Counted from the first letter of the stretch, positions 5,229-64,000 are shown. The stretch is DNA of 64,000 nucleotides from an uncultured Alphaproteobacteria bacterium (GCA_944392775.1 CALXXV010000003.1:61279-125278), one strand, 5' to 3'. A program made the numbers and translations. The notes: generated by a model from the sequence alone, not told the origin.

Positions 5229-5235
5229 CGAATTT

Positions 5236-8918: not shown

Positions 8919-9059
8919 ATTTGTATTTTTACACATTGAAAATTATTTATTTCTTCAAAGGGGACAAAAAATTATCATAATCTTAATTTATAAGTCATAA
9001 AAATATGCTTTTACGGATTTTTATTATATTTCCATTAAAATAAAAAAGAGCTAGAAGTT

Positions 9060-9689: not shown

Positions 9690-9745
9690 TTATAAATACT
9701 TTTATAAAAACAAATATGCTATAATTATTTCCAAAGGAAGCCATT

Positions 9746-10723: not shown

Positions 10724-10790
10724 CCAATATATCACATTTGAAAAGAACTTATGCAACATAAACAAATAGCACAAGATTAAATATTTTTTG

Positions 10791-11708: not shown

Positions 11709-11851
11709 TATTTTGTTATCTATATATTTACATTTGTAATTATAACATATAACGTTATTATAAACAATAGTCTTATTCTTTACAATTACTTAAAAATACT
11801 GGCACGAACATATTTACTTGAAAAATTTTTTATAACTTTTATCTTTCTTAT

Positions 11852-13274: not shown

Positions 13275-13408
13275 AACAAGACAAAAACCAACATTTCCTA
13301 AGACAAGAACCTTTTCCTAAATACAGCATTGCGATTGAAAGCTAATAAAAAACTGTATATAATTATTTTGTCTTAGGACAAAAACAAAATTTCTAAAAGG
13401 AGAAAGAG

Positions 13409-13621
13409 ATGAGAGGATTTACAGATTACGTTCTGAAACCATTGACTTTTATAGGCGCTCTAAATTGGGGGTTAATCGGTATATTCGGTTTCGATTTAGT
13501 CGCATTTATATTCGGCCCAGGAACTCTGGCCAGCAGCATTGTATACAGTCTTGTTGGTATTGCCGCACTTATATGGTTAATATGGATGTTCATAAATAAA
13601 AGCGATAATAGTGAAAAATAA
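13409..13621 (+). CDS. DUF378-family small membrane protein
   Basis: MRGFTDYVLKPLTFIGALNWGLIGIFGFDLV; strong RBS AAAGGAGAAAGAG. Confidence 0.6.
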   Translation: MRGFTDYVLKPLTFIGALNWGLIGIFGFDLVAFIFGPGTLASSIVYSLVGIAALIWLIWMFINKSDNSEK

Positions 13622-13640
13622 TATTTAATGTTCATGTCTT

Positions 13641-13668
13641 CGCGCCCTTATATCAGGGCGCTTTTTAT
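13641..13668 (+). terminator. Rho-independent terminator GCGCCC-TTATATCA-GGGCGC-TTTTT
   Basis: GC stem plus T-tract after the DUF378 gene. Confidence 0.6.
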
Positions 13669-13809
13669 ATGTAAAAACAACAACTATCTTTATGATTTTT
13701 CTAAAAAATCCTAAGATTTTTAGGAATGTATACTTCTCGAAAAACAACTCTTTTTATAGTAATACAAATTAAATGTAAATCGTTCATTTATTGGGAATGG
13801 GGGTAAATC

Positions 13810-39664: not shown

Positions 39665-40963
39665 TTAGTCCCACCACCATGATTTAGACGGTTTGTTAAC
39701 TAATTTTTTTAATCCGTCTAAGTCATTCGGAGAATCTAGTTTGTGTATCAATTTGTGACAGTTGGGACATAAAATAAGAAAATCATCGGCTTTAACTTCT
39801 CTGGTTTCACCTTCGGTTATTTCTGAATACGGGCTTTTATGGTGTGCTTCCAGTATGCTTTTCATGTGGGCTCCGTATTCTTCTGCAGGGTTTAATCCGC
39901 AAGCCATACATACATAACCAAAATGCTCTTTTATTGTCTGTATATCTTTGTTGCTAAGACGCCCTTCATATTTAGTGTGTTTGTCTATTCTTTTTTTCTT
40001 TTCTTTAAAAGTTACAATTTCATGAACAATTCCATCAAAATCGTTTTTTGAAATTTTATCATCAAATGATTTTACTTTATCTAACAGTTTTGTTTTTATT
40101 GAATCGTCTTCAAATTCACTTTCTGTGATTAGTTTATTTAAGTGCGCCTCTCTTGCAGGATAAATGTCTGTGCGATTAAATCTGTCACTTGCAAGTTTGC
40201 CTTTTTCTTCATCTCCAAAGTGTTCAATAAACAGTTTTTCTCTCTCTTCATCTGTCTTATCATTTGCCAAAACTTTCCAGCCCAATCCTTTGTCGTTTAG
40301 CGCTTTTAAGGCGTTGTCCATGTCTGCTGACGAAATATATGTGCTTGATACCGAATAGGCGCGCGAACCAGAGCCGCCGCCTCCTGAATAACTGCCAGAG
40401 TATCCGCCACCGCTGTCGCCGCTATCTCTACTACCGCCGCCAGAATGTCCACTTCCACCTGAATAACCGCCAGAACGATATCCGCTTGATGTATAACTGT
40501 TTGATGCTTTATGTGGTTTTGAACTGCTTTGTTCAATAAGTTTTTGTATTTTGGAATTAGATAAAGTTGTAAAATAGGGAGGTATATCTTTCAAAAAGTG
40601 AGTTATAAGTTTACCTGTTGCAATACATGACAAATAAAACAGCAAGTAAAATAACGCTGGGTGCAAGAAAATCATAGCTAAGCCAATCCAATCGCCTAGA
40701 AGTTGCTCGCCAAAAGCAGCAAAGATTACAATGAATATAATATAAAAAATAAATCCTGATATAACTGCGACCCAACTTACATTGTCATTCCACCATTCTA
40801 ATATAGATATTTGTTTTTCTAACTGTACTAGGTTCTCCCAATCGTCGGACGATTTTTCTCTTACAAAAAAGGTACTTTTATCTTTTTTAAACAGGTCTGA
40901 TTTCAGATTGTCTACAAAAAATGTTTTGGTAGCAGTAGTTATTTTATATCGTTCGTTTGACAT
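39665..40963 (-). CDS. Membrane-anchored HNH endonuclease-domain protein: two TM helices, a Gly/Ser/Tyr-rich low-complexity linker, a middle domain and a C-terminal HNH domain
   Basis: HNH motif CMACG...EAHHKSP...LILCPNCHKLIHK. TM segments VSWVAVISGFIFYIIFIVIFAAF and WIGLAMIFLHPALFYLLFYL. Linker GYRSGGYSGGSGHSGGGSRDSGDSGGGYSGSYSGGGGSGS. Confidence 0.6.
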   Translation of the reverse strand: MSNERYKITTATKTFFVDNLKSDLFKKDKSTFFVREKSSDDWENLVQLEKQISILEWWNDNVSWVAVISGFIFYIIFIVIFAAFGEQLLGDWIGLAMIFLHPALFYLLFYLSCIATGKLITHFLKDIPPYFTTLSNSKIQKLIEQSSSKPHKASNSYTSSGYRSGGYSGGSGHSGGGSRDSGDSGGGYSGSYSGGGGSGSRAYSVSSTYISSADMDNALKALNDKGLGWKVLANDKTDEEREKLFIEHFGDEEKGKLASDRFNRTDIYPAREAHLNKLITESEFEDDSIKTKLLDKVKSFDDKISKNDFDGIVHEIVTFKEKKKRIDKHTKYEGRLSNKDIQTIKEHFGYVCMACGLNPAEEYGAHMKSILEAHHKSPYSEITEGETREVKADDFLILCPNCHKLIHKLDSPNDLDGLKKLVNKPSKSWWWD

Positions 40964-47142: not shown

Positions 47143-47844
47143 TTGGAATATCCAGATAATTTTGAAATACCGACGTTTCCTGCAGGTAAACGTATTGCCG
47201 TTTCTCGTTTTATGGCAATAGGGGTATCTATATTATTCTTGATAACAATTTTCTTATGTTTTTTAATTTTATGGTCTTCAAAATCTCAAAGAATAGATCC
47301 TTTTCTGATATCTATTGACAATGTAACTGGGCAATGGATTGATGTAGGTCATTCACATACAAACGGTCCTATTAAATATACTGCCGCAAGATTACTTCAA
47401 GAATCTGTACTGGGGAAATTTACTGAAAAATGGTTCTTAATAACCCAAGATGAACAAGTAAATGATTCTATCTGGCAAACATGTCAAAGAGACCTTTCTT
47501 GCATAAACAATAATTCAATAGCATACGGAGAAAACGAATGTTCTCTGTTCTGTTTGTCGGGCGAAGAACTGTTTTCAAAATTCATATATGATGTTGTTCC
47601 AGATTATCAAAATAGATTTTTTATGGGCGAAGTATGGTTTATAGATAAGGCATCCATCCAAATGGAACCGGTAAGCCAAATTTCTAATATCGGTGGGACA
47701 TGGCGTATATTCGCAAAAATAAAATCTAATTTAACAGAAGAAATAAATATCTTGGCCTTTGCAAAAATTGCACGAAACCAGAATAACTATCCGCAAACAT
47801 TAGGATATTATGTCGCGGATTTTAATGCATATAAGATAAATTGA
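47143..47844 (+). CDS. Bitopic membrane protein with a periplasmic domain (VirB8-like topology; identity uncertain)
   Basis: About 20-aa cytoplasmic N-terminus, one TM helix, about 190-aa C-terminal domain. Confidence 0.4.
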   Translation: MEYPDNFEIPTFPAGKRIAVSRFMAIGVSILFLITIFLCFLILWSSKSQRIDPFLISIDNVTGQWIDVGHSHTNGPIKYTAARLLQESVLGKFTEKWFLITQDEQVNDSIWQTCQRDLSCINNNSIAYGENECSLFCLSGEELFSKFIYDVVPDYQNRFFMGEVWFIDKASIQMEPVSQISNIGGTWRIFAKIKSNLTEEINILAFAKIARNQNNYPQTLGYYVADFNAYKIN

Positions 47845-48485
47845 TGAAAAAAATTATTTTATTCTTTATCGCTTTATTTTTATTAGTACTTACTTTTGGT
47901 ACACTATATTTTACGGGTGCCATATACGATGCAGGTCGAAACATGGTCATACGTCCATACTTCTTTCAACCAAACTTTTTATCTGAATACAGACCGGGAA
48001 CCCCAAAAACCCAAGCAGATATAGGTGATAGTAAATTTATGGATTTATTAGTAAAAAAATATATAAATGAATATTTTTATGCATCTCCTGACCCAGAAAA
48101 CATAGCAAAAAGACTTCGTAACAATAGTATAATAGCTAAACTATCTTCCCAAAAAGTATTTAATGAATGGGAAAAAACAGAAGGTGAAATTATAAAAGAC
48201 TTAGCAGAAAAAAAAGCCCTAAGAATCGCACGTGTTCTGGATGAAATATATAAACCATCAAACAGTGATTATTGGGTAATAAATTATGAACTAAAAACAT
48301 GGACCAAACCAAATGATTTTAGTATTGTTCCAGAGACAGAACGTGGTACACTATACATGAAAATACTATACGAGCCGGGTATGCGTGATGATGTTAATTT
48401 AGAACTAATTCATGAATACCTAGAAAACGGTAATGACCCAGCTGCAGTATTTAAATTCCGAGTCATAGAATTATTAAAAGGCTGA
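47841..48485 (+). CDS. Bitopic membrane/periplasmic protein, same architecture as the preceding gene (start overlaps by 4 nt)
   Basis: N-terminal TM; translationally coupled. Confidence 0.4.
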   Translation: MMKKIILFFIALFLLVLTFGTLYFTGAIYDAGRNMVIRPYFFQPNFLSEYRPGTPKTQADIGDSKFMDLLVKKYINEYFYASPDPENIAKRLRNNSIIAKLSSQKVFNEWEKTEGEIIKDLAEKKALRIARVLDEIYKPSNSDYWVINYELKTWTKPNDFSIVPETERGTLYMKILYEPGMRDDVNLELIHEYLENGNDPAAVFKFRVIELLKG

Positions 48486-48491
48486 TATTAA

Positions 48492-49280
48492 ATGAAAAAA
48501 TTGGTACACAAAAACATAAATATAATTGCATTATTCTTGCTGTTACCAATACCCGTACTGGGGGCAACAGATTCTTTTGACTTTAACAATTTTATAATAA
48601 CAGACAGTGCAGATGCAGATCTTACGACCAGTGCAATTACAATGAATGCAGACGCAGAACCTGTTGACGTAAGTAATTTTGATATTGCGGGAATTATTTT
48701 AGGAACACCTTTTGAAAATGTAGAAAGTTTATTTTTTAAGAACAACGGTTTATATGCCCCGCGTTCAAAAAACGCAATAATATATACAATAAATAAAGAT
48801 TGGAAATATAATCTTGACTACGAATGCCGCTTACAAGGTATTGTTGCACCGGCAGAACTAGAACAATGTATAAATACCTTAGCCAAAAACAGAGGGTTAT
48901 TGTATGCATCAGAAGTCCATCTGCTGCGTGAAAATACAGGCGAGACAATTACAGTATATTTTACAAGCAACGCAACAGATAACCTTGTATGGAAAATTGT
49001 ATATAATAATGATGTTAACGAAATAGAAGGCGATCACGAAAAATTCGAAAATCAACGCGAGAAAAAAATTCTTGTATTTTGGCAAAACGTCTTGGATAAA
49101 TATGGCGCTCCAAATTCTGGAACCGATAAATGGATAACCACGACGAATCCATATGATCCAATTATGACGGCATATTATGGGGCACTAGAATTAGTTGACT
49201 TGGGACGCTATAGTTCTGATGAAGCTAAGAATATTCAACAAGCACGAGAAAATTTTAAGGCAAAATCTTACGCTTTCTAA
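48492..49280 (+). CDS. Secreted hypothetical protein (signal peptide)
   Basis: N-terminal signal LLLPIPVLGA. Confidence 0.45.
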   Translation: MKKLVHKNINIIALFLLLPIPVLGATDSFDFNNFIITDSADADLTTSAITMNADAEPVDVSNFDIAGIILGTPFENVESLFFKNNGLYAPRSKNAIIYTINKDWKYNLDYECRLQGIVAPAELEQCINTLAKNRGLLYASEVHLLRENTGETITVYFTSNATDNLVWKIVYNNDVNEIEGDHEKFENQREKKILVFWQNVLDKYGAPNSGTDKWITTTNPYDPIMTAYYGALELVDLGRYSSDEAKNIQQARENFKAKSYAF

Positions 49281-51804: not shown

Positions 51805-51830
51805 CCCCGGTTTTTATGCACCGAAACATT
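51805..51830. terminator. Bidirectional terminator AAAAACCGGG-TAAC-CCCGGTTTTT
   Basis: Between convergent genes. Confidence 0.65.
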
Positions 51831-52275
51831 TATCTATGTACACGTTTGATACACCACTTCCTTTAATAACACTTCCCTTTTTTACCATAACATAAGTACT
51901 TTTATTTATATATGAAGAACCACTTTGTTCTGAAAAAACCAGAACATCATCAACATACAAAAAAAGATTTGAATTATTTTGTATAAATGTTGCAAAACAA
52001 TAACCATTATAGGGCATTGTATAAGGCAACGTTACTTGTTTTCTGCTAGAGGTATCAGGCATCAATAATTCCATTATGCAATCTTTTTGAACAGCTGATA
52101 GATTCGATAAATCTAAAATTTCGCTTTTCTTCGCTAATACTGTTCCCCCAACCGTTTCTCCGTCATGAACACGAAGGGTTTTGTTCGTAGTATCCATAGT
52201 AACTTCACCTATAACCCCAGTAAAATTTTCGTGTTCTACAGAAGTTCCCCTACGTATTTGTATTTGTCTGGACAT
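51814..52275 (-). CDS. Phage tail-fibre-like protein, Mtd_N-type N-terminal domain. Paralog of 29191-29763
   Basis: MSRQIQIRRGTSVEHENFTGVIGEVTMDTTNKTLRVHDGETVGG. Confidence 0.55.
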   Translation of the reverse strand: MSRQIQIRRGTSVEHENFTGVIGEVTMDTTNKTLRVHDGETVGGTVLAKKSEILDLSNLSAVQKDCIMELLMPDTSSRKQVTLPYTMPYNGYCFATFIQNNSNLFLYVDDVLVFSEQSGSSYINKSTYVMVKKGSVIKGSGVSNVYIDKCFGA

Positions 52276-52345
52276 TTTTTCTCCTTTTTTTTAGTCCAGC
52301 TTTCTGATCGTTTGAATTCTTTCATTTCTGTGCTATGATACTGCC

Positions 52346-52687
52346 ATGAATTCTTATAAAACTGGTTTATTTGCCGAATTCGTTACGTGCATCTATCTGC
52401 GCCTGCACGGGTTTAAAATACTAAAAAGACGATACATAACAGGAAAATTTACAGGGCGCGCAGAAATTGATATTATCGCAAAAAAAAATAACCTTATCAT
52501 TTTCGTAGAAGTAAAAAAAAGACCCGATATTATTACGGGGCTTGATGCAATATCACAAAAACAAATTTATCGCTTACGAAATGCCGCCGAAACATACATA
52601 ATCCAAAATAAATGGACGGGAAACGCCAGATTTGACGTAATCGTCGTTACCCCTTTTAAAATCAAGTGGTTTAAGGGGGTTATATAA
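52346..52687 (+). CDS. YraN/UPF0102-family endonuclease-like protein
   Basis: RGE.DII..K.NLIIFVEVKKR pattern. Confidence 0.55.
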   Translation: MNSYKTGLFAEFVTCIYLRLHGFKILKRRYITGKFTGRAEIDIIAKKNNLIIFVEVKKRPDIITGLDAISQKQIYRLRNAAETYIIQNKWTGNARFDVIVVTPFKIKWFKGVI

Positions 52688-52911: not shown

Positions 52912-52940
52912 TTAAATCCCGCATAAACGCGGGATTTTCT
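52912..52940. terminator. Terminator AAATCCCGC-ATAAAC-GCGGGATTTT (bidirectional)
   Basis: GC hairpin flanked by A/T runs. Confidence 0.6.
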
Positions 52941-53198
52941 TTATTTTATAACGGCGGTTTTTATTAAAGCGACATCATCTTTTATTCCGTCTAGTTTTAT
53001 TTGCAATTGTCCTATACCAGTTTCTAATATAGTTACTCGATTCTCTAATGTTGTTATTCTGTGATCTGCCCGTTCTAAATCTGCCAGTGAAGAATCTTGA
53101 CGAGCAACCCAATATATCATTCCAGCAACGAAAGCTATCAAAAACCAACTATCCCTTAAAAAATCTATGATGCTCGTCGCTCCTGGTTGCATGGACAT
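52941..53198 (-). CDS. Small single-TM protein with a coiled-coil tail (holin/spanin-like?), at the end of the phage module
   Basis: TM WFLIAFVAGMIYWV followed by heptad-like sequence. Confidence 0.35.
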   Translation of the reverse strand: MSMQPGATSIIDFLRDSWFLIAFVAGMIYWVARQDSSLADLERADHRITTLENRVTILETGIGQLQIKLDGIKDDVALIKTAVIK

Positions 53199-53402: not shown

Positions 53403-54626
53403 TTATAATAATGTTTCTTCTAATGCCATTTTGGCAATCGGGGCAATATATTTTAATTCTGCATCACTATGCAAAGATATTTTATCTATCACACCTCGAC
53501 GTGACAAAATTTGTAAACCGCGTTCACATAACGGTCTTATAAATTCGTGCAATAATCTACCATATGTTGCCCCAAGAATTCTCATCATATCGGCATTACG
53601 CGCCATTATTTCGGTTGCGGTCATTTCTTTTTCTGACAGTAACCCTAATCTATCTGCTAATAACGCATGTCTTATTCTTTCACGCAAATCTTTTAAAACT
53701 ATCTGAGATACATCAAAATCCGCCCCAGAAGATAACGGCGTCAAACCCGAGCTTCCAACTGCTTTTGGAATTATTGCCCCCGGTGTTAAATTTATATTAG
53801 ATAAATTTATAACCCCATCATCATCAGCTTGCCAAATACCAGATACCGCTATTGTTGCATTCTTTAAAACTAGTTCTACTACTTTATTCGCTGTTTTTAT
53901 GTCAGGTAATGCACGCAATACGGGACCTCTTCCATAAAGTTCACCACTGGCAACAGACCAACGGAAAATTAAATACGGGTTAGTTTCGAAAGTCCCCTTG
54001 GATACAATGTTATTTTCTATTTCCCCACCAACGTCTAGCCATGCTGTAAATTCTGTACCAACTAGACTTTGAACCAATCTTAAAGGATAGTCTGGATCTT
54101 TTTTTATAACATCTCTTATATCTAATGGTGGGGTCCAAGACGGGTATTTTTCTATAACTTCTTTGGCCGGCATAGAGGTTGTATGAAATATAGCGTTGGG
54201 TAATATCGCAATATCTCTCATTGGAATCGCAGTAAATGAAAACGCAGAATCTGCACCGATTGGATTTTCAGCCATAAACAAACAGGCAGTTCCCAGAATT
54301 ACTAAATCAAGATAACATTGATGTATTGTCGTATAAAAGTTAGAATCATTTAAATTGGCACGTAATGCGTTTGTTGCATTTATTGCATTTGGAGACTCTT
54401 CACTTTCTGGAATCAAAGAAATCCATAAAGATTCAGGTGGCGTCAATAAAGAATACATCGATGCAGCTAGATTATCAACCGCATCGGCGGCAGTCGCGTC
54501 AAATAACATAGCAACTTCATCGTCTGCCGTAGGCATTGTATAACGTAGCGCGCTGTCCCATCTATTTAACCATGGAGCACGTAAATCGAGTGCTCTACGA
54601 TACATTTGTTGTAAATTATTTTGCAT
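53403..54626 (-). CDS. Putative phage portal (head-to-tail connector) protein
   Basis: About 400 aa, immediately downstream of the terminase nuclease half. Start adjusted to MQNNLQQMYRR. Confidence 0.45.
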   Translation of the reverse strand: MQNNLQQMYRRALDLRAPWLNRWDSALRYTMPTADDEVAMLFDATAADAVDNLAASMYSLLTPPESLWISLIPESEESPNAINATNALRANLNDSNFYTTIHQCYLDLVILGTACLFMAENPIGADSAFSFTAIPMRDIAILPNAIFHTTSMPAKEVIEKYPSWTPPLDIRDVIKKDPDYPLRLVQSLVGTEFTAWLDVGGEIENNIVSKGTFETNPYLIFRWSVASGELYGRGPVLRALPDIKTANKVVELVLKNATIAVSGIWQADDDGVINLSNINLTPGAIIPKAVGSSGLTPLSSGADFDVSQIVLKDLRERIRHALLADRLGLLSEKEMTATEIMARNADMMRILGATYGRLLHEFIRPLCERGLQILSRRGVIDKISLHSDAELKYIAPIAKMALEETLL

Positions 54627-54643
54627 TTTTGCTCCTTTTTTTA

Positions 54644-55507
54644 TTACAACGTAAAATCCGTATTTGCGGTAAAAGGTTTTATTATGTGTCCCTGCGGACG
54701 AACTGGCATTGGTAACGCACATATAGCACCTGCAACTGCATCTAAACCATCATCATGACCGGTATTGCCTATAGGTGACCACCCAAGCATTTCTGACAAT
54801 AAAGGAGTACTTTGAACGCGTCTATGTGCATGAAGACGCCCTGTGGTCAAGACAGGTTCAATAGAATCTAAGATTCTTGTTTCCTTTTTTTCATGATTTA
54901 GTATTTTTTGAACTTGTAAGCTTATACCACGACGTTGTGTTATATTTCTCATTATTTCTGGTAATGCATTACCCATACCATTTGTTTCTATATAAATTTT
55001 ATGCAATGAATATTTTGATAAGAAATCAAGAACCATTTCGCACTGACTTGCTAATGGATACATATCTTCATCTGATACCAATAAATATTTAACATCATGT
55101 ATAAAAAAATGTTTATTTTTATCATCCCTGTAAATCAAAACGCATACACTACCATCTGATTTTTTTCGTCCGGACGAAGGGTCCCAGTATGCAGTTACAC
55201 CAGTAATTAAAACATCACCTATCTTTGCCGTTCTGGAATCAAATTCACTTTCATATAAATGTAAAGAATCGGGATCTAATCTTGCCCTATCTGGAGCTAC
55301 AAATTGTAACATCATTTGAGCAGAAAAATATCGTGCCCCGACAACATTTCGTAATTCGTCTATTTTCTGCATAGAAAATACTTCGGGCCACGCAGGGTTT
55401 CCCATTTCATCAACTATAGGTATTTTTAATTCACGATAACCACGTAAAAAAGGCGTTGAAAAAACAAAATTTTTATATACTATATCTGACATGGACTTTA
55501 CTCCCAA
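54644..55507 (-). pseudogene. Large terminase subunit, C-terminal nuclease-domain fragment (second half of the split gene)
   Basis: RNase-H-like nuclease region with acidic residues. In-order continuation of the ATPase fragment at 58822-59472. Confidence 0.55.
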
Positions 55508-57044
55508 AACTTTGCCGACAAATCTAGAGGCCGAACAAGCGGTTTTGGCTGCAGTTCTTATGAATAACCGAGCATTAGAACGTGTTTCTGAATTTCTAAG
55601 GCCCGAACACTTTTCTCATCCAGCGCACCAAGAAATTTATAAGCTTGCAGAAAGACAATTCTCTGCGGGCGTACCTTTTGATATAATCACAGCAAAAAAT
55701 TATTTAGACCAACAAGGTGTTCTTGAATCTGTCGGGGGAATAGATTATCTAACCCAATTATCAAGCGCAGGTGCAACTGTTGTAAACGTTGAACAATATG
55801 GTCGAATAGTTTACGAAAACGCACTAAGACGTGATCTTATAAATCTTGGGCAATCAATTACAGATGCCGCTTTTGTCGAGGATCTTGATAATCCTGTATC
55901 TGCACAAATAGAAACTGCTGAACAAAAACTTTTTGAAATGGCGTCTGCCGGTGTTTCTGAACGTGAAGTTACTTCGATTGCAACAGCTTTGCAAGGGGCT
56001 TTACAAGAAGCAGAAATTGCATATAAAGCAGATGGCAAACTATCGGGTTTAACAACAGGGTTAACAGCTTTGGATAAATCAATAAGCGGGTTACACCATT
56101 CCGATTTAATAATCATTGCAGGACGTCCTGCAATGGGTAAAACAACATTAGCAATGAATATTGCTTTTAACGCTGCAAACGCAATTTTATATGGCAGGGC
56201 TAATGAAAAATATAAAGGTGCTGTCGCATTTTTTAGCTTAGAAATGTCTTCTTCTCAACTTGCTGCACGAGTACTATCTTCTCAATCAAAAATACCCGCA
56301 TCTGCCATGCGTGAAGGAAATCTAACAGATGAAGATTTTCTTAAAATGTCACAGTATTCCGCAGCGATCGGTCGTGTACCTTTATATATAGATGATACAC
56401 CGGGTATGTCCGTACCAATGATGAGAACACGCGCAAGACGTCTGGCTAGAAAATGCGGAGGAATCGCATTAATAGTAATTGACTATCTACAGCTTATGAC
56501 GTCACCCGGGGGTAAACGTAGCGATAACCGTGTACAAGAAATCTCTGAAATAACACGCGGTTTAAAAATGTTAGCAAAAGAACTAGACGTTCCTGTAATT
56601 GCCCTGTCACAATTGTCGCGTAGCGTAGAATCTCGCGATGATAAAAGGCCACAATTAGCGGATCTTCGTGAATCCGGATCTATTGAACAAGATGCTGACA
56701 TTGTCATGTTCGCTTACCGAGAAGAATATTATCTAGAAAACAGAGATCCTTCACAAAGAATTTCTGGTAATACAAACGATAAAATAATTGAAAGTTATCA
56801 AAAGCGTTTAGAACGTGCACGTGGCAAAGCAGATGTCATTATTGGCAAAAATCGACATGGACGTCCAGAAACAGTTCATTTAGCTTTCTTTGGTGATTAT
56901 AGTTTATTTGATAATCTAGACGAAATGGCAAATCGTATGAACGAAGAATTTATAAACACAAATACATCATTACAAACAGAGCTATCAACGTCAGATAATC
57001 AGATTATTAATGCAGACGAAATTCCAGACGATATGCCACTGTAA
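55491..57044 (+). CDS. dnaB: Replicative DNA helicase DnaB-family protein
   Basis: N-terminal domain LEAEQAVLAAVLMNN, Walker A GRPAMGKTTLAMN, SLEMS, QLSRSVE motifs. Confidence 0.8.
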   Translation: MDFTPKTLPTNLEAEQAVLAAVLMNNRALERVSEFLRPEHFSHPAHQEIYKLAERQFSAGVPFDIITAKNYLDQQGVLESVGGIDYLTQLSSAGATVVNVEQYGRIVYENALRRDLINLGQSITDAAFVEDLDNPVSAQIETAEQKLFEMASAGVSEREVTSIATALQGALQEAEIAYKADGKLSGLTTGLTALDKSISGLHHSDLIIIAGRPAMGKTTLAMNIAFNAANAILYGRANEKYKGAVAFFSLEMSSSQLAARVLSSQSKIPASAMREGNLTDEDFLKMSQYSAAIGRVPLYIDDTPGMSVPMMRTRARRLARKCGGIALIVIDYLQLMTSPGGKRSDNRVQEISEITRGLKMLAKELDVPVIALSQLSRSVESRDDKRPQLADLRESGSIEQDADIVMFAYREEYYLENRDPSQRISGNTNDKIIESYQKRLERARGKADVIIGKNRHGRPETVHLAFFGDYSLFDNLDEMANRMNEEFINTNTSLQTELSTSDNQIINADEIPDDMPL

Positions 57045-57114
57045 AATAATTTTATGCTTGCCAACCATATAAAAATTGACTAATATTTTGTCAAGAATCC
57101 AAGGAGTTTTTACT

Positions 57115-58122
57115 ATGGCGCAAGAAGAAATAATTTTCCCTAATAATATAAGAAACATCCGTCTAGCAAATGGGATGAAAATGACCGATCTGGCGCGTCA
57201 GGCAAACTTATCTTTATCAGCAGTTTCAAAAATTGAAAAGGGTGTACGCCGGTTAAATCAAAAACAGCTTTTAAACATTTGTAATATCCTTGGTTGTAAA
57301 TTATCTGACATATTCATCAAAGAATCTGATGAAGTCGCAAATAAATGGCAGGAAGAAATAAAACGCCGTATGAACGACAACGAAGACAGCGGATTAAAGA
57401 TATTCGGCAGTGGCCTTCGTAAAATTAGACAACAAGCCGGAAAAACAATTGCTCAGGCAGCAAAAGATGCCGGTATGACACTATCTGTTTATCATAAAAT
57501 AGAAGTAGGACAACGAGAAATATATCAAAATGAAATCGAACCATTAGCAAAATCTTTTGCGCTTAGCGTTGAAACTTTATTTGATAAAATTGCCAATCTG
57601 TATAAATCTGGCGAATTAAACAAACAAATAAATAAAGTTAAAGAACGCGTAAAATCTGTGTTGATTCCAGGTAACCCTTTGTCTGGTATTGATGTACACA
57701 GTAGCTTATATGGTGCAAAATTATACGATAGTGCCAGGAAAAAATTAGTTCCTGTGTTTGGTATGCCTTCTGGTAAATCAATTTCTTTCAAAAAGTCAGA
57801 CGAAACCATGATTGTAGCACCAATGCCTTTAGAAGGTAGAAAAGGCATATATGCAATTGTCCCTAATTCTAAACGTACAAATGGTTTTATTCCCGAAAAA
57901 TCTTATGTTTTTGCAGATGCGGACACGCCAGCAACAGTAGGCGATTTGGCTATATCAATTGATGCAGATTTTGAGTCAATGGATGCCGGTGATACAGCAA
58001 TTGCTAATATAGTTACCGTACGCCAAGATTCCAAAGGTAAAATTTACGGTCAAATATCTTCCCCAGAAGAAAAAATTATCGGCAAAACATTACATAAAGT
58101 AGTAATGATTGTAACGGAATAA
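57115..58122 (+). CDS. Tandem XRE-type HTH transcriptional regulator with a C-terminal CI/LexA-like (possible degenerate S24) domain
   Basis: Two HTH_XRE-like segments, then ...DFESMDAGDTAI...KGK. Start at MAQEE with RBS AAGGAG. Confidence 0.5.
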   Translation: MAQEEIIFPNNIRNIRLANGMKMTDLARQANLSLSAVSKIEKGVRRLNQKQLLNICNILGCKLSDIFIKESDEVANKWQEEIKRRMNDNEDSGLKIFGSGLRKIRQQAGKTIAQAAKDAGMTLSVYHKIEVGQREIYQNEIEPLAKSFALSVETLFDKIANLYKSGELNKQINKVKERVKSVLIPGNPLSGIDVHSSLYGAKLYDSARKKLVPVFGMPSGKSISFKKSDETMIVAPMPLEGRKGIYAIVPNSKRTNGFIPEKSYVFADADTPATVGDLAISIDADFESMDAGDTAIANIVTVRQDSKGKIYGQISSPEEKIIGKTLHKVVMIVTE

Positions 58123-58144
58123 ACCCATTAAATCGGAGGGAAAA

Positions 58145-58825
58145 ATGAAAACAAAAATCAATACAACAGCGCAAAAGTTATTAAACTTATACCGTCAAGA
58201 ACATGTTATATTCGGCGGTTGGGCTGCTGTGAACGAAGTTTTCATAAACGAAGCCACACCAGAAGTATTAAAAGCCTTAAAAGAACTTCCCACAGGTAAA
58301 AATTTAGTTCATCACATAGAAAACCTACGTAGCGGGAAAACCCCTATGAATACCATTGAACGTGAGTTATTGCCTTATGGTGGTATGATGGCAGAAACGA
58401 TCGCAACCATACCTTTAACACAATCAGAATGGGAAGAATTGCAAAATGGTATAAACAATTTCACTCCGGATGAAGACGGGTTGAACAGGTTACAACAATT
58501 ATCCGTAATAAAAAAATTCGGTGACCAATGGTTAGTTGCTATACGTTCTGCAATATCAGAAAAACCAGATCTTATGGAAAAGTGGTCTATTATTACAAAA
58601 ACATATCGAGCATATTATTTGTGGAAAGTTGCTAGTGATATGTTAAATCAACCGCTGTCAGAACGTGCACGTGCTCAATTACAAGCAGATATGCCAGAAT
58701 ATGAAACATACCTGCCCATGTTCGGGGAAGCAGGCGTTGCATTATTAGAAAAATTACGTTCTTTCATTACTACGATGAAACCCTTAGATACAGATAACGC
58801 ACCAGATACTCCAACATCTATTTAA
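58145..58825 (+). CDS. Hypothetical protein
   Basis: ORF with RBS GGAGGG. Confidence 0.4.
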   Translation: MKTKINTTAQKLLNLYRQEHVIFGGWAAVNEVFINEATPEVLKALKELPTGKNLVHHIENLRSGKTPMNTIERELLPYGGMMAETIATIPLTQSEWEELQNGINNFTPDEDGLNRLQQLSVIKKFGDQWLVAIRSAISEKPDLMEKWSIITKTYRAYYLWKVASDMLNQPLSERARAQLQADMPEYETYLPMFGEAGVALLEKLRSFITTMKPLDTDNAPDTPTSI

Positions 58826-59472
58826 TCATCTTCTTGCGTTCTATAAATTGTATCCATTGTATGTGGCGTACCAATATAGATCATGGCCCCTGAAGGAGAA
58901 AGAATAAAATCTAATTCTCTCAGTTTTTCTCGTAAACTATCTCTCTTTTGGGCTGTATTACAAGTATTCGGGACCTCTACATCATCACAAATTATTAAAT
59001 CCGCCCGCATGCCTGTTATATTTCCATGAACACCTTGGCATATAACCGAAGGTTCCCTAATACCTATAGGCCGATTTACTGTAATCCTACCTTGCGCCCA
59101 TTCTTTTTTTGTTTGTGGAATCAAGTTGGAACATTTCGGATGATTTTCCAACACATGTCTTATATGAGAAACCATTCTTGAAGCCAAACCACTTTCAGCA
59201 GAAAGTATCAATATTCTAGTTTCTGGTCTAAGATATAATACGCATGCAGCAAATATACCAACAACAGTTGACTTTCCAGAATGTCTGAAAGACATCAAAA
59301 GCCCACGTTTTGGTTCAGTTGTCCAAACAGATACAAGAAAATCCATTATTGTTTTATGATGCAAAGGTGTAGAAAAGCCTAATAATTCATTCCATTCATC
59401 TAAAAAATTATAAAATTCCGTAATCATCACGAGTTTCATTCGGTGCAAGCTCGGTAATACTGCCATAATCAT
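58822..59472 (-). pseudogene. Large terminase subunit, N-terminal ATPase-domain fragment (first half of the split gene)
   Basis: Walker A FRHSGKST, Walker B LIICDDVE, motif III-like IGTPHT. Confidence 0.55.
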
Positions 59473-59956
59473 TTATAAGCTTCGGTAATGCATTTTCTAG
59501 AACAGAGACTAGATTGTTATATAATCCTAAAACACTTCCCCCAGAAAGTTTATCTTCTATTACCTGCAAATTATACTGCAAAAAAGCCATTACATTATCA
59601 TGGGTATTTTGCCATTCCGAAATATTTATATCTATTGAATGTAAATCACGAAAAGCTTCTAATAAAAAATTAAAATCAGCATTTAAACTTTCAGGATCTA
59701 TCTTAGATGTTGGTTGATAATCAACAACTCTATTTAAAGAGATCTGACGAAAGATATCTATTTTTACTCCTTGACTTGGAGCCTCTATGAAAACGACATT
59801 TCCTCCATCAAAATTTTCATTTGCAACAACAGAATAGTTTGAATTTTGTAAAATTTCTTCGTCCAAAGCCACTTTAATATCTTCATCCTGAAAGAACGGA
59901 AAAGCAAATAGGAATTCAGTAGTTACACCATCTCCTATATAAGATATTTTATACAT
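59408..59956 (-). CDS. Tail-fibre N-terminal (tail-attachment) domain protein, T7 gp17 N-terminus-like, lacking a distal receptor-binding region
   Basis: YKISYIGDGVTTEFLFAFPFFQDEDIKV resembles the T7 gp17 N-terminus (YQLDGSNRDFNIPFEYLARKFVVV). Confidence 0.4.
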   Translation of the reverse strand: MYKISYIGDGVTTEFLFAFPFFQDEDIKVALDEEILQNSNYSVVANENFDGGNVVFIEAPSQGVKIDIFRQISLNRVVDYQPTSKIDPESLNADFNFLLEAFRDLHSIDINISEWQNTHDNVMAFLQYNLQVIEDKLSGGSVLGLYNNLVSVLENALPKLINDYGSITELAPNETRDDYGIL

Positions 59957-59973: not shown

Positions 59974-60321
59974 TTAATCAATCAAATCTTCGAATTTGTC
60001 TAAGACAGATTGCAATAAATTTGGTTTGCTGACTTTTATTTTTTTTAATTTCTCTGAATTAACCTTACGTTTCGTTTCATATGGTTCTTCTACCTCTGAT
60101 TTAAGTCTTTTTAATACAGCACCTTCTGTCATTCCGCGTCCCGACATACCTGATGCACCATATTTAGCACGTTGGGTTGCTAAAGTTTTTTTTACAAGAT
60201 TAGTTTTTTCTTTTTCGTCTGCTGCCATATCTGCGATAATTTTTTGTCGCTCTGTTTCTGCTTCTTTTTTTGCATTTTTATAATTTAAAACATCTGTTAC
60301 ATCTGACACTAACTGTCCCAT
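59974..60321 (-). CDS. Hypothetical phage-module protein (basic, coiled-coil)
   Basis: ORF only. Confidence 0.3.
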   Translation of the reverse strand: MGQLVSDVTDVLNYKNAKKEAETERQKIIADMAADEKEKTNLVKKTLATQRAKYGASGMSGRGMTEGAVLKRLKSEVEEPYETKRKVNSEKLKKIKVSKPNLLQSVLDKFEDLID

Positions 60322-60338: not shown

Positions 60339-62054
60339 TTATACTAAATAATAACCATACATACTTACTGATAAAACAGTAGCTGGCAATTGTTCGCTGC
60401 TTTTTATAGACCATGGCGCATCAATACAATTACGTTGGCACCCTAATAAATTCACACAAACATCACCGCTATAACCATTTGATGTTTCATCATATATATC
60501 ATTTGGTAAATCTGTTCTTGCCCCATTTATAAATAAAGTTTTTGTATCCAAAACGCGTGCACATATTTTCCGCAATCTTATCTTATTAGCATTATGCCCA
60601 GATGCCCTAACAGGTAACGCAGATGCAGTAAAGGAAAAACCGTATTTACCGGCATCCTGTAAAGCGTCATTTGAAAATTTTTCAATAGAATATTCATCTT
60701 GTCTTAAAACTACTACAAACGTTTCTCCGTCTATTACTGCGACAGATATAAACTTACCCTGCGTTTTATAAGTACCCCACGCAGAAATACCCAGTGCAGA
60801 ATTTTGATTTAATACGGCCATATCTCCCGATTCCATAATAACGAACAACTGTCTTGTTAAATCGTTATAGGCTAAATCAACAGGATCTTTCATAAGGTGT
60901 TTGGATAAAGCACACAAATCTGTTGCATTATAATTTTCGCCTAACTGATCTAAACTTAATTCTCGAATATCTTTTTTACTGCCGGAAATAAAAACAGTTG
61001 CCCCTTCTATTTTTTGTGGTGGCAAATAACGTCCTACTACACTTCCGACAGAAGTATGTTGTTTTATATCTACTGCTGCAGGTGTTAAAGGTTTACTAGA
61101 AATTGCCCATTCCCCAGCAGAAGTCAGGATTTGTAAATTATCACTGCTGACGACAGTACATATCTGCTGTCGTTGCTCTGAAAGTAGTGTTATAAAAATT
61201 GCTTCATCATCTAAACCTGTACCGACATCAAAATTATTATGCTTTCCTACTTTTGACATCCATACACCACTTGGCCAAGATCTAGAGCCACCAAAAACCA
61301 GTCTATCTTGATGAAACGTTATACTACACGGCCATCCGCGACGAGTACTAAAAGCTGCTTCAAACCAATCAGAAACAGGTTCATCAGGAACTGTATATGA
61401 AGAATTTACATGTGCGGTAACAGTTTTTGAATCTATATATTCAGTAATAGTCCATTGCTTATTTAATAATAAAAATCGACCATCTACATCTTCTGGAACC
61501 CAATAATTTTTATCTGTTTTAAATGTTGCAAAGTTATTTCCAGAACTATTCGTTGTTACAGTAATTTTTATACCTTCTGAGTCATCAAACCTCATGAATG
61601 GTATATTCACACTCATATCATCATCGTTTCTAGAAAAATCGAACTGAGATAGATCAAATGAATCATCAACTTTTTTTAATATATAAGGTCTATAATCAGG
61701 GTGTACAAAAATCATCGTTCCGAACCGTTGGGCATATTGTAACTTTGATAGATCACTACTTTCCCACGGAGCAATCATACTTTTTATAATTTCCCCATTA
61801 GAAAATATTGACAACTGCTCGTCAGTTAATGCGATAAGATAACTTTCATTTTCACTTACAGAAAACGATATCAATCTTGCAGAAGTATCAATATCTGCAA
61901 TTTTAACCAATCCAGGTCGTCTCGATAATCCGCCACCAGCCAATACATACATATTTTCTAACTTTGAAAGACCATTTAAATTATCCCGCGCAAAAAATTC
62001 TTGTGAGACTTCCCCGTCTGCAAAAGAATTTTGCGTTTTTATAAAATCTCCCAT
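60339..62054 (-). CDS. Large phage structural protein (tail tubular protein B-like by size and position)
   Basis: 571 aa; lies between the putative gp11-like protein and the fibre gene in T7-like order. Confidence 0.35.
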   Translation of the reverse strand: MGDFIKTQNSFADGEVSQEFFARDNLNGLSKLENMYVLAGGGLSRRPGLVKIADIDTSARLISFSVSENESYLIALTDEQLSIFSNGEIIKSMIAPWESSDLSKLQYAQRFGTMIFVHPDYRPYILKKVDDSFDLSQFDFSRNDDDMSVNIPFMRFDDSEGIKITVTTNSSGNNFATFKTDKNYWVPEDVDGRFLLLNKQWTITEYIDSKTVTAHVNSSYTVPDEPVSDWFEAAFSTRRGWPCSITFHQDRLVFGGSRSWPSGVWMSKVGKHNNFDVGTGLDDEAIFITLLSEQRQQICTVVSSDNLQILTSAGEWAISSKPLTPAAVDIKQHTSVGSVVGRYLPPQKIEGATVFISGSKKDIRELSLDQLGENYNATDLCALSKHLMKDPVDLAYNDLTRQLFVIMESGDMAVLNQNSALGISAWGTYKTQGKFISVAVIDGETFVVVLRQDEYSIEKFSNDALQDAGKYGFSFTASALPVRASGHNANKIRLRKICARVLDTKTLFINGARTDLPNDIYDETSNGYSGDVCVNLLGCQRNCIDAPWSIKSSEQLPATVLSVSMYGYYLV

Positions 62055-62069: not shown

Positions 62070-62588
62070 TTAAAAACGTGCATTGATTAAAGAGAAATTT
62101 TCAATATCCTGACTTACAGAAGTCGTACTATCTATAAATTTTGCAGATTGCATTTCAGTTTCATATAAAGCCGCCAACATACGAAAAACATTCTGTTCAC
62201 CGATTAAAGGTATACAAAATTCCATAGCCAATTTAGTAGCTGCTAAAGAAACAAAATAACTTGGAAATTTTTCTACAGGCACACGAACAATCGCTAATAC
62301 AGACGTTGTTTCTGCAGAAGAAATAATTTTATCTCCGACGATGTTACCGTCACATTTTAAAATTCGCAAACAATCGGCAGGAATCAAGAATTCACCGTCA
62401 GCGTTTTTGGTTAAATCAAAAGACTTACAAGCAAAACGCCAAGGATGTGAAGATAGCAAAGTATCTACCACCGGATCAAATAAAGTTCTACTAAGTTGCG
62501 CGGCCGGTGTATCATCTAATAAAGACTGAATGGATTTTTCACCAAGTTTTAACAACGCCATAGAACATAAATCTATTTTTGTAAGCAT
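62070..62588 (-). CDS. Phage structural protein (tail tubular protein A / adaptor-like by position)
   Basis: Position and size only. Confidence 0.3.
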   Translation of the reverse strand: MLTKIDLCSMALLKLGEKSIQSLLDDTPAAQLSRTLFDPVVDTLLSSHPWRFACKSFDLTKNADGEFLIPADCLRILKCDGNIVGDKIISSAETTSVLAIVRVPVEKFPSYFVSLAATKLAMEFCIPLIGEQNVFRMLAALYETEMQSAKFIDSTTSVSQDIENFSLINARF

Positions 62589-62663
62589 ATTATGTCCTTT
62601 ATAATTTAAATGAAAAAATTTGAGGCGACCTTTAAAAAGTCGCCTCTTTATATATCTATTCTA

Positions 62664-62891
62664 CTAAGCTACACTACCAATCGTCACATTTGTAGATACT
62701 GTAATTTTCTTTATCGATGTATTATCAGATGCATTGATTATGACAAGATCTCCTGTATTCATCAATGTTTTAACGCCGTCAAAATAACCTGATGCAGTTA
62801 TTGTTGATAGTGTTTCATTTGCTGCATAATGCCATAATGTAAAACCGTTTGCATATGCAATTACGGATAAATTTTTATTCTGAAAAGCCAT
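62664..62891 (-). CDS. Small hypothetical phage-module protein
   Basis: ORF only. Confidence 0.25.
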   Translation of the reverse strand: MAFQNKNLSVIAYANGFTLWHYAANETLSTITASGYFDGVKTLMNTGDLVIINASDNTSIKKITVSTNVTIGSVA

Positions 62892-62917: not shown

Positions 62918-63748
62918 TTAAACAGTTTCATCACTATCAGAACACTTCAAGCGAACAATACCGTCATTATCAATAAGTACTGCACCTTGAGACATACTGT
63001 TGCTTATAAAATGCGCTGCCCTTTCACCGTGCCAAGAAATATCTGTTTTTACTTCCTGACCGCATGCATGCCCCAGACTGGTCGAGTGATATATAAAACA
63101 ATCGCGTTTTTCTTCTGTAACAGGTAGGTTATTATGCAAAATCCATGTAATACCCAACCATTTTTTTGATGCGCCACCTGATACTAAAGGTAAATCGTTA
63201 CCGACATAATCTGCAGATATAAATTCATCGATTGATAATAATTCATTCCATTGATGCACCCCAACAACAGCAAATCTTCGTCCATCATCTGGAACATCTT
63301 TATTATTTAGTTCTTCTACTGCAGCTAATATTAAATCTTTAGTTAATCCTGTGCTATAATCGCCAACATAATTATTAGCGCTATTCATCGCGGCAATTAT
63401 TAATTCGTCCGTTTTACGACCTAATGCATATGCACCAGCAGATGCAACGACGCGACGTTCATCAACATTAGTCTTTAATTCATCCAAGGCATCAACCCAA
63501 TCACCTGCATAATAATCTTGCAACAAACACTCTACAGGTTCATGATTTAAATTCATTACCGGTACAATACCATGACGAGATTTTGTACTTGCTGTACCGC
63601 GGCCTACTTTTTGAAAAGTCGTAGAAGCACCAACGACACCAGACTTACTACGAACGGTCGCCCTTAATTTTGTGCCCATTTGCTGATAAGCTAAATGAAC
63701 ATCTGCTTCGAATTGTTTCACGAAGACTTGATCTATGGAAACAGACAT
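62918..63748 (-). CDS. Putative phage major capsid/structural protein
   Basis: First gene of the co-oriented structural module. Preceded by terminator-rich intergenic DNA. Confidence 0.35.
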   Translation of the reverse strand: MSVSIDQVFVKQFEADVHLAYQQMGTKLRATVRSKSGVVGASTTFQKVGRGTASTKSRHGIVPVMNLNHEPVECLLQDYYAGDWVDALDELKTNVDERRVVASAGAYALGRKTDELIIAAMNSANNYVGDYSTGLTKDLILAAVEELNNKDVPDDGRRFAVVGVHQWNELLSIDEFISADYVGNDLPLVSGGASKKWLGITWILHNNLPVTEEKRDCFIYHSTSLGHACGQEVKTDISWHGERAAHFISNSMSQGAVLIDNDGIVRLKCSDSDETV

Positions 63749-63964
63749 GTATTTTTCCTTTATATTATTAAATAAAAAAACGCATTAAAATGCGCCGATT
63801 TAAATTTTGTTTTATGGTTATGCAAAAAATTGCGCCGTATAACAAAACGATCAAGGTCCGACAATATTTGGATTATCTTGAAAATTCTTAGTTAGACATT
63901 TATATCTAACTAAAAATTTTATTAAAAAAACCGCATAACGCGGAAACATTATTATATTAATAAA

Positions 63965-63995
63965 AATCCCCGCTAAGCAGGGATTTTTATTATTT
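63965..63995. terminator. Hairpin AATCCCCGC-TAAGCA-GGGATTTTTATT (terminator)
   Basis: GC stem plus T-tract. Confidence 0.5.
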
Positions 63996-64000
63996 TCTTT

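Follow-up and report, generated by a model that had tools for sequence, protein, structure and literature searches.

The ATPase and the nuclease of a large terminase (TerL) are expected on one polypeptide of ~480-590 amino acids (aa), and the locus described here raises the question of what it means when they are not. The locus lies in a stretch of 64,000 nucleotides (nt), hereafter the window, from an uncultured Alphaproteobacteria bacterium (GCA_944392775.1 CALXXV010000003.1:61279-125278), which we place as Candidatus Enterousia-like in the order Rs-D84, gut Alphaproteobacteria with genomes of ~0.75-1 Mb. Here, as in every locus of the clade, two minus-strand open reading frames (ORFs) for the N-terminal part (TerL-N, 58822-59472) and the C-terminal part (TerL-C, 54644-55507) of a T7-type terminase stand 3.3 kb apart. 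Between them, as the initial annotation had correctly recognized, the opposite strand carries ORFs for the helicase DnaB (55491-57044), for a helix-turn-helix (HTH) regulator (57076-58122) and for a protein of 226 aa (p226, 58145-58825). This arrangement had been explained either by a replication/regulatory cassette that inserted into terL of a T7-like prophage and inactivated packaging, or by a domesticated phage-derived module with a rearranged terminase. From sequence comparisons, we regard it as highly probable that the locus is a selected, domesticated module with a naturally two-chain TerL. We also favor, with more modest confidence, the fuller reading that this T7-like module is ancient, vertically inherited and used for DNA packaging like that of a gene transfer agent (GTA).

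The two parts of the large terminase

Judged by their profile positions, 58822-59472 and 54644-55507 on the minus strand are two collinear parts of one T7-type large terminase. TerL-N matches positions 270-459 of the 760 positions of the TerL family phrog_38 (E 7e-41) and positions 1-192 of the 500 of the NCBIfam model termin_lrg_T7 (NF033889; 222.9 bits, cutoff 150), and it aligns with residues 32-215 of T7 gp19 (4bij/8dgc). TerL-C continues in the same models, at positions 468-704 of phrog_38 (E 5e-37) and 218-500 of termin_lrg_T7; its score of 108.5 bits against the latter stays under the cutoff of 150, which was set for the whole protein. It also matches Pfam Terminase-T7_RNaseH-like (37 bits, cutoff 27) and Terminase_6C. 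When conservation of the catalytic motifs was scored in 60-70 loci, the Walker A (FRHSGKST), Walker B/catalytic glutamate (LIICDDVE) and motif III (GTPH) sequences of TerL-N were invariant or nearly so (60 loci), and so were the acidic nuclease motifs WDP, ETNG and DDGLDA of TerL-C (70 loci). The TerL-N ORF has 216 codons, and its real start is probably 59466 or 59439; recorded gene calls of 214 and 205 aa start later than the ORF, and an exact look-up of the 216-aa sequence gave no match.

An exhaustive search of 1.8 billion representative proteins showed that the nearest relatives outside the split family are 45-53% identical and are single ORFs of 450-510 aa, apart from shorter, fragment-like entries; the 53%-identical match (P0122) sits on a contig of 1.2 kb. 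TerL-N (216 aa) and TerL-C (282 aa, from its ATG) align collinearly, end to end, with six intact relatives, in agreement with the order proposed in the initial annotation. Between GTPHxxxxIY and PFLxG(F/Y)xxLxIPxxD, a short stretch that is rich in gaps and not conserved contains the break; TerL-N ends there with TIYRTQEDD and TerL-C begins with MSDIVYKNF, and no conserved column or block of the intact proteins is missing. Near its start, TerL-C has the conserved segment RELKIPIV, read as a beta-strand that would pack against the ASCE core of TerL-N. A profile built from the fused sequence and 19 intact relatives matches T7 gp19 (PDB 4BIJ) with E 8e-48 and places the break at about residue 215-235 of gp19, directly past motif III (GTPH). 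The former description of the pieces as ATPase and nuclease halves is approximately right, with the correction that the cut lies inside the ATPase domain.

The RNase H-like domain starts only at about residue 107 of TerL-C, with the ~100 residues ahead of it kept on the nuclease piece. In P0124, an intact relative, the match to the Pfam ATPase model extends at the break only as far as position 153 of 215, and another ~100 residues separate this point from the nuclease; across the fused junction of N and C, the Pfam models align only partly and give, for such a divergent family, indirect information. The architecture of TerL has been described as an ASCE (additional strand, conserved glutamate) subdomain, a lid subdomain, a short linker and the nuclease (Terminase architecture, PMC5727402). 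On the profile coordinates, TerL-N appears to be the ASCE core, and TerL-C appears to comprise the lid/linker and the nuclease. T7 gp19 (PDB 4BIJ; NF033889), a member of the same family, is a single chain of 586 aa, whereas the TerL of Rs-D84 is broken past motif III into parts that are translated separately.

Conservation, selection and age of the split

A search of 5.8 billion proteins with TerL-N gave 874 matches; the best 120 of them, which were characterized, are 199-225 aa long and 72-87% identical, the exact match aside. Many of these come from long contigs of chromosomal origin, and those with a name are from Candidatus Enterousia or from metagenome-assembled genomes of Alphaproteobacteria. 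Relatives of TerL-N occur in at least 587 genomes of GTDB, scanned with one genome per species. Gene order was compared in 80 fetched species-level genomes of Candidatus Enterousia/order Rs-D84, as far as the contigs reach. It is the same in 80/80 loci: capsid, p75, tail tubular proteins A and B, p115, (the fibre N-domain protein), TerL-N, then p226, the HTH regulator and dnaB on the opposite strand, then TerL-C, portal, a Bbp19-like protein and p85. The genes are full-length, each in one alignment and free of stops, with rare exceptions near contig ends. An assembly artefact can be excluded, because a circular long-read genome of 958,618 bp (L049, OZ007020.1) has the same arrangement. IMG/VR holds 172 contigs with the module, and 78 of the 80 that were fetched for comparison show this arrangement again; no empty site was present among the 160 loci (80 genomes and 80 IMG/VR contigs). 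Many of these IMG/VR loci (L089-L166) are ~10-12.5 kb long, most of those spanning capsid to Bbp19/p85.

Synteny in relatives had been set beforehand as a check, and the same gene order throughout implies naturally separate genes and speaks against insertion. In a single genome, collinear halves with opposite-strand cargo between them do fit a recent insertion of a dnaB/regulator cassette into terL of a decaying T7-like prophage, by which packaging would have been killed and the halves left as pseudogene remnants. The comparative data refute it: the split and the gene order are found in every related genome examined, in 80 genomes and 78 IMG/VR contigs, and a divergent lineage described below has the same split site. 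Both ORFs are intact with invariant catalytic residues, and their ratios of nonsynonymous to synonymous substitution rates (dN/dS) are ~0.1 (0.084 for TerL-N and 0.116 for TerL-C). Target-site duplications or other repeats at the junctions, searched with a seed of 8 and including att-like ones, were absent beyond chance-level AT-rich matches, and the composition of the genes is fully ameliorated to that of the host. We regard the recent, inactivating insertion as extremely improbable.

The dN/dS values were estimated by the Nei-Gojobori method (NG86) over the 20 closest pairs, 13-18 of which were usable for most genes; dS of 1.0-1.8 is near saturation, so the ratios are approximate though far below 1. 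They amount to 0.050 for capsid, 0.058 for portal, 0.042 for DnaB, 0.065 for the HTH regulator and 0.099 for p226, and they range over 0.04-0.14 for the ORFs as a whole. About 10.6 kb of T7-like structural and packaging genes are thus kept in at least 587 species under constraint as strong as that on housekeeping genes. The genomes of Rs-D84 have been described as strongly reduced and the organisms as uncultured (PMC12306168). The retention of ~10.6 kb of phage genes in such reduced genomes argues for a function of the module. Pairwise protein distances of seven tested genes (five phage-derived ones, HTH and p226) track the DnaB distances (Spearman 0.64-0.80). The G+C content, the G+C content at third codon positions and the codon usage of the phage-derived genes equal those of the housekeeping genes in the window (correlation of relative synonymous codon usage, r 0.93).

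The age of the split is indicated by a more distant lineage with a GC content of 0.51 (L167, IMGVR_UViG_2820136564_000001, 4731-13855), whose proteins are 58% (DnaB), 75% (capsid) and 66% (TerL-N) identical to those of the window. Its TerL is cut at the same site, the N piece ending with GTPHASDTIYQV before the stop and the C piece starting with MSPFLRNY. The gap contains dnaB, convergent to the N piece; in place of the HTH regulator and p226, neither of which has a match there, stands an 834-aa Cys-rich protein with a signal-peptide-like N-terminus. Pilin-like and ParA-like genes lie between TerL-C and portal. The head-to-head overlap of dnaB and TerL-C in the Enterousia loci is not ancestral, because TerL-C of L167 does not abut dnaB. 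The simplest reading of these sequences would be that a block containing dnaB entered terL once, long ago, and that neighbouring genes were later gained or lost in individual lineages.

The nearest elements with an intact TerL (L083, L168 and L170-L177) have one TerL ORF, with 45-49% identity in TerL and 59-62% in capsid. Their order, pieced together from partly truncated contigs, is the canonical one, with portal, Bbp19, scaffold, capsid, p75, tubular proteins A and B, fibre, further genes, TerL and hydrolase. The Enterousia module is also rearranged relative to this order, with the portal block after TerL and with a hydrolase, a small membrane protein and the scaffold before capsid. The closest capsid from a GenBank phage (62% identity) is that of L082 (MT838907.1, 'Bacteriophage sp.', human faeces, 5084 bp), an unannotated sequence of 5 kb with the canonical order portal, scaffold, capsid, p75 and tubular proteins A and B; its source is probably a true phage or prophage that is akin to the ancestor of the module.

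These data also bear on a second alternative, in which the locus would be an active temperate T7-like phage or satellite, widespread in its hosts, with its own DnaB and repressor. All 172 IMG/VR contigs with the module are listed as viral, and phages often encode DnaB-like helicases and Xre repressors. However, only ~10.6 kb of phage-type genes are present, and no integrase, phage polymerase or primase was recognized in the cluster or wherever the window and flanks were annotated, and att-like repeats were likewise not found there; the larger ORFs scanned elsewhere in the window are mostly housekeeping genes. The sole replication gene found in the cluster is dnaB (55491-57044, plus strand), for a replicative DNA helicase of 517 aa. 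It is of cellular type: its scores exceed the thresholds of the cellular equivalogs NF006606 (616 bits, cutoff 540) and TIGR00665 (509 bits, cutoff 385) but not that of the phage_DnaB model (408 bits, cutoff 499). Moreover, the genes co-diverge with the host and use its codons, and true phage relatives have an intact TerL and the different, canonical order. An active phage is thus very improbable.

Junctions and genes within the gap

At the left end of the gap, the two strands start head to head. Plus-strand positions 55490-55493 read CATG, in which the ATG of dnaB (55491) and the ATG of TerL-C (55492, minus strand) share two bases, and this start/start overlap is present in 72/73 loci. TerL-C has a Shine-Dalgarno sequence, GGGAG, 6 nt upstream of its ATG and within codons 3-5 of dnaB (Thr-Pro-Lys), of which the GG is fixed because of the Pro codon of dnaB. 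Since independent gene callers (NCBI, ENA, Logan) recorded a TerL-C of 282 aa, the start is most likely ATG 55492 and not TTG 55507, so that the ORF noted before exists and the gene probably spans 54644-55492. The CATG overlap, the gene's own Shine-Dalgarno sequence and the 282-aa gene calls together show that TerL-C has its own translation signals and would be translated alone.

Synonymous diversity in the first 15 codons of TerL-C is 0.06 against a gene mean of 0.51, a drop that alignment indels may exaggerate. A conserved block, AAAGGCGTTGAAAAA, lies in these codons, where a consensus scan found the sigma-70-like TTGAAA-16-TACTAT, ending 7 nt before the dnaB ATG. The block at 55456-55483 (plus strand) is therefore a candidate for the dnaB promoter, embedded with the 5' end of the dnaB unit in the first codons of TerL-C. 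A search for an operator common to this block and other promoters of the window gave no enrichment.

At the right end of the gap, TerL-N and p226 converge. Their stops overlap by 4 nt in the window, and such an overlap (TTAA or CTAG) is present in 39/78 loci and mostly lie within ~25 nt elsewhere, and a hairpin scan revealed no convincing terminator between them. Seen from these junctions, transcripts of the two strands must overlap. On its other side, the TerL-N ORF is overlapped by the 3' end of the fibre N-domain ORF where that gene is present, and synonymous diversity is reduced to 0.23-0.32 in the first ~20 codons of TerL-N.

It may be asked whether the two chains are joined again, either through an intron or intein or through a programmed rearrangement of the DNA in which the 3.3-kb insert is lost. 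Recombinases excise intervening elements such as skin, and a removal of this kind would restore one chain here. In the Jug phages, for example, kilobase inserts of group I introns and homing endonucleases interrupt terL in elements that are otherwise functional, and splicing restores the split gene (PMC12880540). Those inserts, however, lie on the same strand, are co-transcribed and are spliced out to give one protein, while the cargo of the Rs-D84 locus is an opposite-strand operon that includes a presumably essential gene and leaves two proteins. No intron or other RNA family of Rfam was found in 54400-59700 at E<=1, and the translations show no intein-like sequence at the end of TerL-N or the start of TerL-C. 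There are no flanking repeats and no recombinase among the annotated neighbour genes, and TerL-C has its own Shine-Dalgarno sequence and ATG. Rejoining is about as improbable as the recent insertion.

A different idea, compatible with the two-chain module, is that the split serves as a regulatory device. Excludons, known from Listeria, are overlapping divergent operons that are regulated by long antisense transcripts, and the Rs-D84 junction is alike in that divergent genes of opposing function overlap at their 5' ends and one mRNA is antisense to the start of the other. In this scheme, the particle genes and the helicase operon would hinder each other's transcription. This idea agrees with the zero-length junctions (CATG in 72/73 loci and the stop/stop overlap in 39/78), with the candidate dnaB promoter under strong synonymous constraint in the first TerL-C codons and with the want of a convincing terminator between the convergent genes; besides, the TerL-C mRNA with its Shine-Dalgarno sequence is necessarily antisense to the start region of dnaB. 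On the other hand, the overlap is read from sequence and may reflect genome compaction, which is expected to be extreme anyway in reduced genomes. When an antisense TerL-C promoter was sought within dnaB, the profile of synonymous diversity was flat and promoter-like matches were fewer than in shuffles; nor did dnaB, HTH and p226 show synonymous constraint pointing to a conserved antisense promoter or RNA. L167, in which TerL-C does not abut dnaB, also tells against it, since the overlap is then not ancestral. We consider the regulatory device unlikely, and its consequence, that replication and particle production would be mutually exclusive, equally doubtful.

As to the genes within the gap, DnaB has full N- and C-terminal domains, and no other gene in the region is as conserved as dnaB. 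For the HTH gene, the start is ATG 57115 (57115-58122, plus strand; 335 aa), within an ORF that reaches to 57076. Its product is clade-restricted, the best 120 of 878 matches being 80-89% identical, the exact match aside. The former label of a tandem-HTH/CI-like regulator stands in its first part: there are two Xre-type HTH_3 domains, both confident in the AlphaFold2 model. Its second part finds no support beyond the Xre-type HTH, as the C-terminal domain (residues 176-335) has no S24 or other Pfam match even at E<=5 and its beta-rich model is of low confidence (predicted local distance difference test, pLDDT, 23-60). An S24/CI-like peptidase is therefore unproven, with no family at E<=5 and a model too poor for a comparison of folds. 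The last gene of the operon, p226 (58145-58825, plus strand), is clade-restricted as well (1232 matches). It has no match in Pfam, PHROGs, NCBIfam or PADLOC, the databases used for family searches, and structure searches with its all-helical model (pLDDT 77) gave no informative neighbour, either in PDB or among viral models. Because they are co-operonic with dnaB and flanked by particle genes, the HTH protein and p226 are candidate regulators of the module.

The particle module and gene transfer agents

The other genes of the module lie on the minus strand on both sides of the gap. The major capsid protein (276 aa, 62918-63748; Pfam Phage_capsid_2, E 2e-71; phrog_3437) is 80-94% identical over 70 loci. 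The small protein p75 (62664-62891), without a family match, is always encoded 3' of the capsid gene; it is kept in 72 loci and adjoins the capsid gene in unsplit phage relatives also. A strong terminator-like hairpin (62622-62646; 11-bp stem with 6 GC pairs, then a T run) separates p75 from the tail genes and is a possible attenuator; T7 has a terminator 3' of its capsid gene, which this hairpin resembles. There follow tail tubular protein A (T7 gp11-like adaptor, 62070-62588; phrog_394, E 3e-33) and tail tubular protein B (T7 gp12-like nozzle, 60339-62054; phrog_376, E 8e-85). The next gene encodes p115 (59974-60321), a conserved small protein kept in 77 loci with a faint Pfam match to T7_gp14 only (E 0.33), possibly an internal virion protein. 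A protein of 182 aa with the N-terminal, tail-attachment domain of the T7 tail fibre (59408-59956; phrog_1640, E 5e-17; Pfam Phage_T7_tail, E 4e-4, below the cutoff) precedes TerL-N; in loci without this gene, TerL-N directly follows p115.

Beyond TerL-C, most commonly after a gap of 17-18 nt from its stop, comes the portal protein of the T7 gp8 family (53403-54626; 407 aa from ATG 54626, as in the gene call, within an ORF to 54722; Pfam Head-tail_con, E 7e-78). It is followed by a Bbp19-like small phage protein (53198-53389; Pfam Phage_Bbp19, E 4e-10), the gene of which adjoins the portal gene in unsplit relatives too. The last gene of the minus-strand block encodes p85 (52941-53198), kept in 66 loci, with weak coiled-coil matches only; a hydrophobic N-terminal stretch, taken by eye as a transmembrane segment, precedes the coiled coil. 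A bidirectional terminator-like hairpin (52914-52937; 9-10-bp stem, 5 GC pairs, T runs on both strands) closes the block from portal to p85. Further on, a small Mtd_N-domain protein (51814-52275, minus strand; Pfam Mtd_N, E 5e-14) is a possible fibre or receptor-binding protein, whose place in the module is uncertain. Between species only its N-terminus is conserved. In the interval 51814-52687, the host gene yraN (UPF0102) separates it from p85, together with DUF4223 in the near-identical contig L085, and it adjoins variable surface-glycan genes (RgpF and WbsX; LicD in L085).

Upstream of the capsid gene runs a leader of ~250 nt (63749-64000, minus strand) with several hairpins, each followed by a T run. 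One of them, at 63888-63913 in the window, reads TTAGTTAGA-N8-TCTAACTAA, and its consensus is tATCAGTCAGA-N8-14-TCTGACTGATa with a T run. It is placed 140-180 nt upstream of the capsid ATG in 55/70 loci. Its 12-bp helix has 96.9% of cells paired and compensatory changes in 8/12 pairs, a result reached in 0/500 shuffles, with the caveat that the loci were chosen for carrying a perfect palindrome of >=7 bp. A second terminator-like hairpin stands directly before the Shine-Dalgarno sequence of capsid in most loci. By analogy with the GTAs of Caulobacter (CcGTA) and Bartonella (BaGTA), these hairpins suggest control by termination/antitermination or by RNA processing.

The module reaches ~2.9 kb past position 64000, measured in L085 from the capsid start to the far end of a hydrolase-like gene, and includes candidate lysis genes. 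To the right of 64000 in relatives (L001:3810-5506, L085:16878-18649) are a protein of 136-147 aa with a faint cell-wall-hydrolase match, a hydrophobic protein of 73 aa that by eye is holin-sized, a T7-type scaffold (Phage_T7_Capsid) and, in the head operon, an Ala/Lys/Pro-rich protein of 108-133 aa that resembles the histone H1-like HC2 and looks DNA-binding. Elsewhere in the window, at 47143-49280, 39665-40963 and 26652-29090, there are ORFs of 233, 214, 262, 432 and 812 aa without a Pfam match at E<=1e-4; the only PADLOC match is a weak JetC/MukB-like one on the 812-aa protein.

What the module does may be approached from what it has kept. Capsid, scaffold, portal and both catalytic parts of TerL are still present, which implies DNA packaging and makes a tailocin unlikely. 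Like a GTA, the module is a phage-derived structural cluster in the chromosome, vertically inherited over the host clade and under purifying selection, and modules for phage replication, integration and lysogeny are absent within the cluster and its annotated flanks. Of the alternatives first proposed, the domesticated module with a rearranged terminase is supported by these comparisons as far as sequence goes, the tailocin form of it is not, and a GTA-like viriform is the best-supported label, though still unproven.

The history may be pictured as follows. In an ancestor that the clade shares with one or more remoter lineages, a block of the chromosome that includes dnaB and is transcribed leftward would have landed inside terL, in a variable surface loop just past ATPase motif III. 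Since then, TerL would be made as two polypeptides, TerL-N with the ASCE core and TerL-C with the lid/linker and the nuclease, which would reassemble non-covalently and package DNA through the portal. Because the gap holds a presumably essential gene, dnaB, a deletion could not restore an intact terL; the split would be entrenched and may persist without any advantage of its own. The most likely product is a GTA-like viriform, a particle of podovirus type into which cellular DNA would be packaged. The two-chain assembly, the formation of particles, the transfer of DNA and the regulatory meaning of the dnaB overlap are what we infer in this account.

Several points weigh against the GTA-like reading. 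GTA activity is here deduced solely from gene content and selection. No small terminase (TerS) and no T7-type ejection proteins gp15/gp16 were recognized in Pfam and PHROG scans, so a complete DNA-delivery machine is not demonstrated. In a mirror-tree comparison, TerL-N and TerL-C showed no specific signal of co-evolution (residual Spearman -0.22, 22 loci). The gene for the fibre N-domain is absent in ~20/80 loci (e.g. L009, L023, L026, L030, L047-L049), and the Mtd_N fibre candidate adjoins the module in only 15/80. To our knowledge, a TerL divided inside its ATPase domain has no experimentally characterized precedent, which makes its activity uncertain.

Some of these points would suit a domesticated particle with a role other than gene transfer, such as a lytic 'killer', a device that delivers DNA or protein to other organisms or a capsid compartment. 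Selection proves a function and not which one, and TerS and ejection proteins were not recognized; the hosts are reduced and possibly dependent on partners (PMC12306168). Yet the portal and both catalytic TerL parts are present with invariant motifs, and a compartment or a tail-only weapon would need neither. We consider such a role improbable, to about the same degree as the regulatory device. The boldest version of the GTA-like reading, an undescribed podovirus-type GTA in all Rs-D84 with a non-covalent two-chain motor and an excludon-like switch against the dnaB operon between replicating and making particles, seems to us more doubtful still.

The GTA-like module may be compared with known systems. 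It shares with the GTA of Rhodobacter (RcGTA) and with CcGTA a phage-derived head, tail and packaging cluster that is fixed in the chromosome, vertically inherited throughout a large clade, under purifying selection and devoid of replication and integration genes. The long leaders and terminators found here suggest control by antitermination, which has been shown for CcGTA (PMC11150451). In contrast, RcGTA and CcGTA are HK97/siphovirus-like, whereas the Rs-D84 module is T7/podovirus-like; they have a single-polypeptide TerL and a known TerS (PMC6854486), whereas this module has two chains and no recognized TerS; and their packaging and transfer have been demonstrated, whereas this module is known from genes alone. 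BaGTA, with its Bgt capsid and run-off replication (ROR) modules, is likewise a domesticated particle cluster of Alphaproteobacteria that is linked, physically and in function, to replication, and its control is exerted by an antiterminator for which a long, attenuating leader is the target (bioRxiv 10.1101/2024.11.20.624540). Its replication partner, however, is a phage-derived origin module beside the capsid genes, while in Rs-D84 it would be the cell's dnaB inside terL, a coupling read from position alone.

Recently, FpGTA of Faecalibacterium prausnitzii was presented in a 2026 paper as the first podovirus-like GTA-like element (PMC12946183). Like the Rs-D84 module, it is a GTA-like element of a gut bacterium with a probable podovirus-like morphology, but it belongs to another phylum, is organized in two separate operons and has been shown experimentally to package DNA; in the passages searched, no split terminase or embedded host gene was found (PMC12946183). 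The Rs-D84 genome paper, searched for these terms, makes no mention of phage, terminase or gene transfer (PMC12306168). Our searches of the open-access literature yielded neither a report of a domesticated T7-like module in Rs-D84 nor one of a terminase that a host operon divides permanently.

Finally, if the GTA-like reading is true, a T7-like, order-wide domesticated particle would join the short list of GTA-type elements. Its hosts, gut bacteria that are abundant though uncultured, have reduced genomes, and recombination may matter for them in escaping genome decay. The locus also shows how a presumably essential host gene can nest in a phage-derived gene and entrench its split. Because IMG/VR lists the module contigs as viral genomes, a cellular dnaB is catalogued as viral sequence, and such a listing of chromosomal loci leads analyses of viromes and predictions of hosts astray. 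In current models, ATP hydrolysis is coupled to the movement of DNA through the covalent link that joins the ASCE core to the lid ('transmission' subdomain) (PMC5727402). The Rs-D84 terminase would then be a natural experiment on terminase mechanics, in which this link has long been absent while both parts are still under selection.

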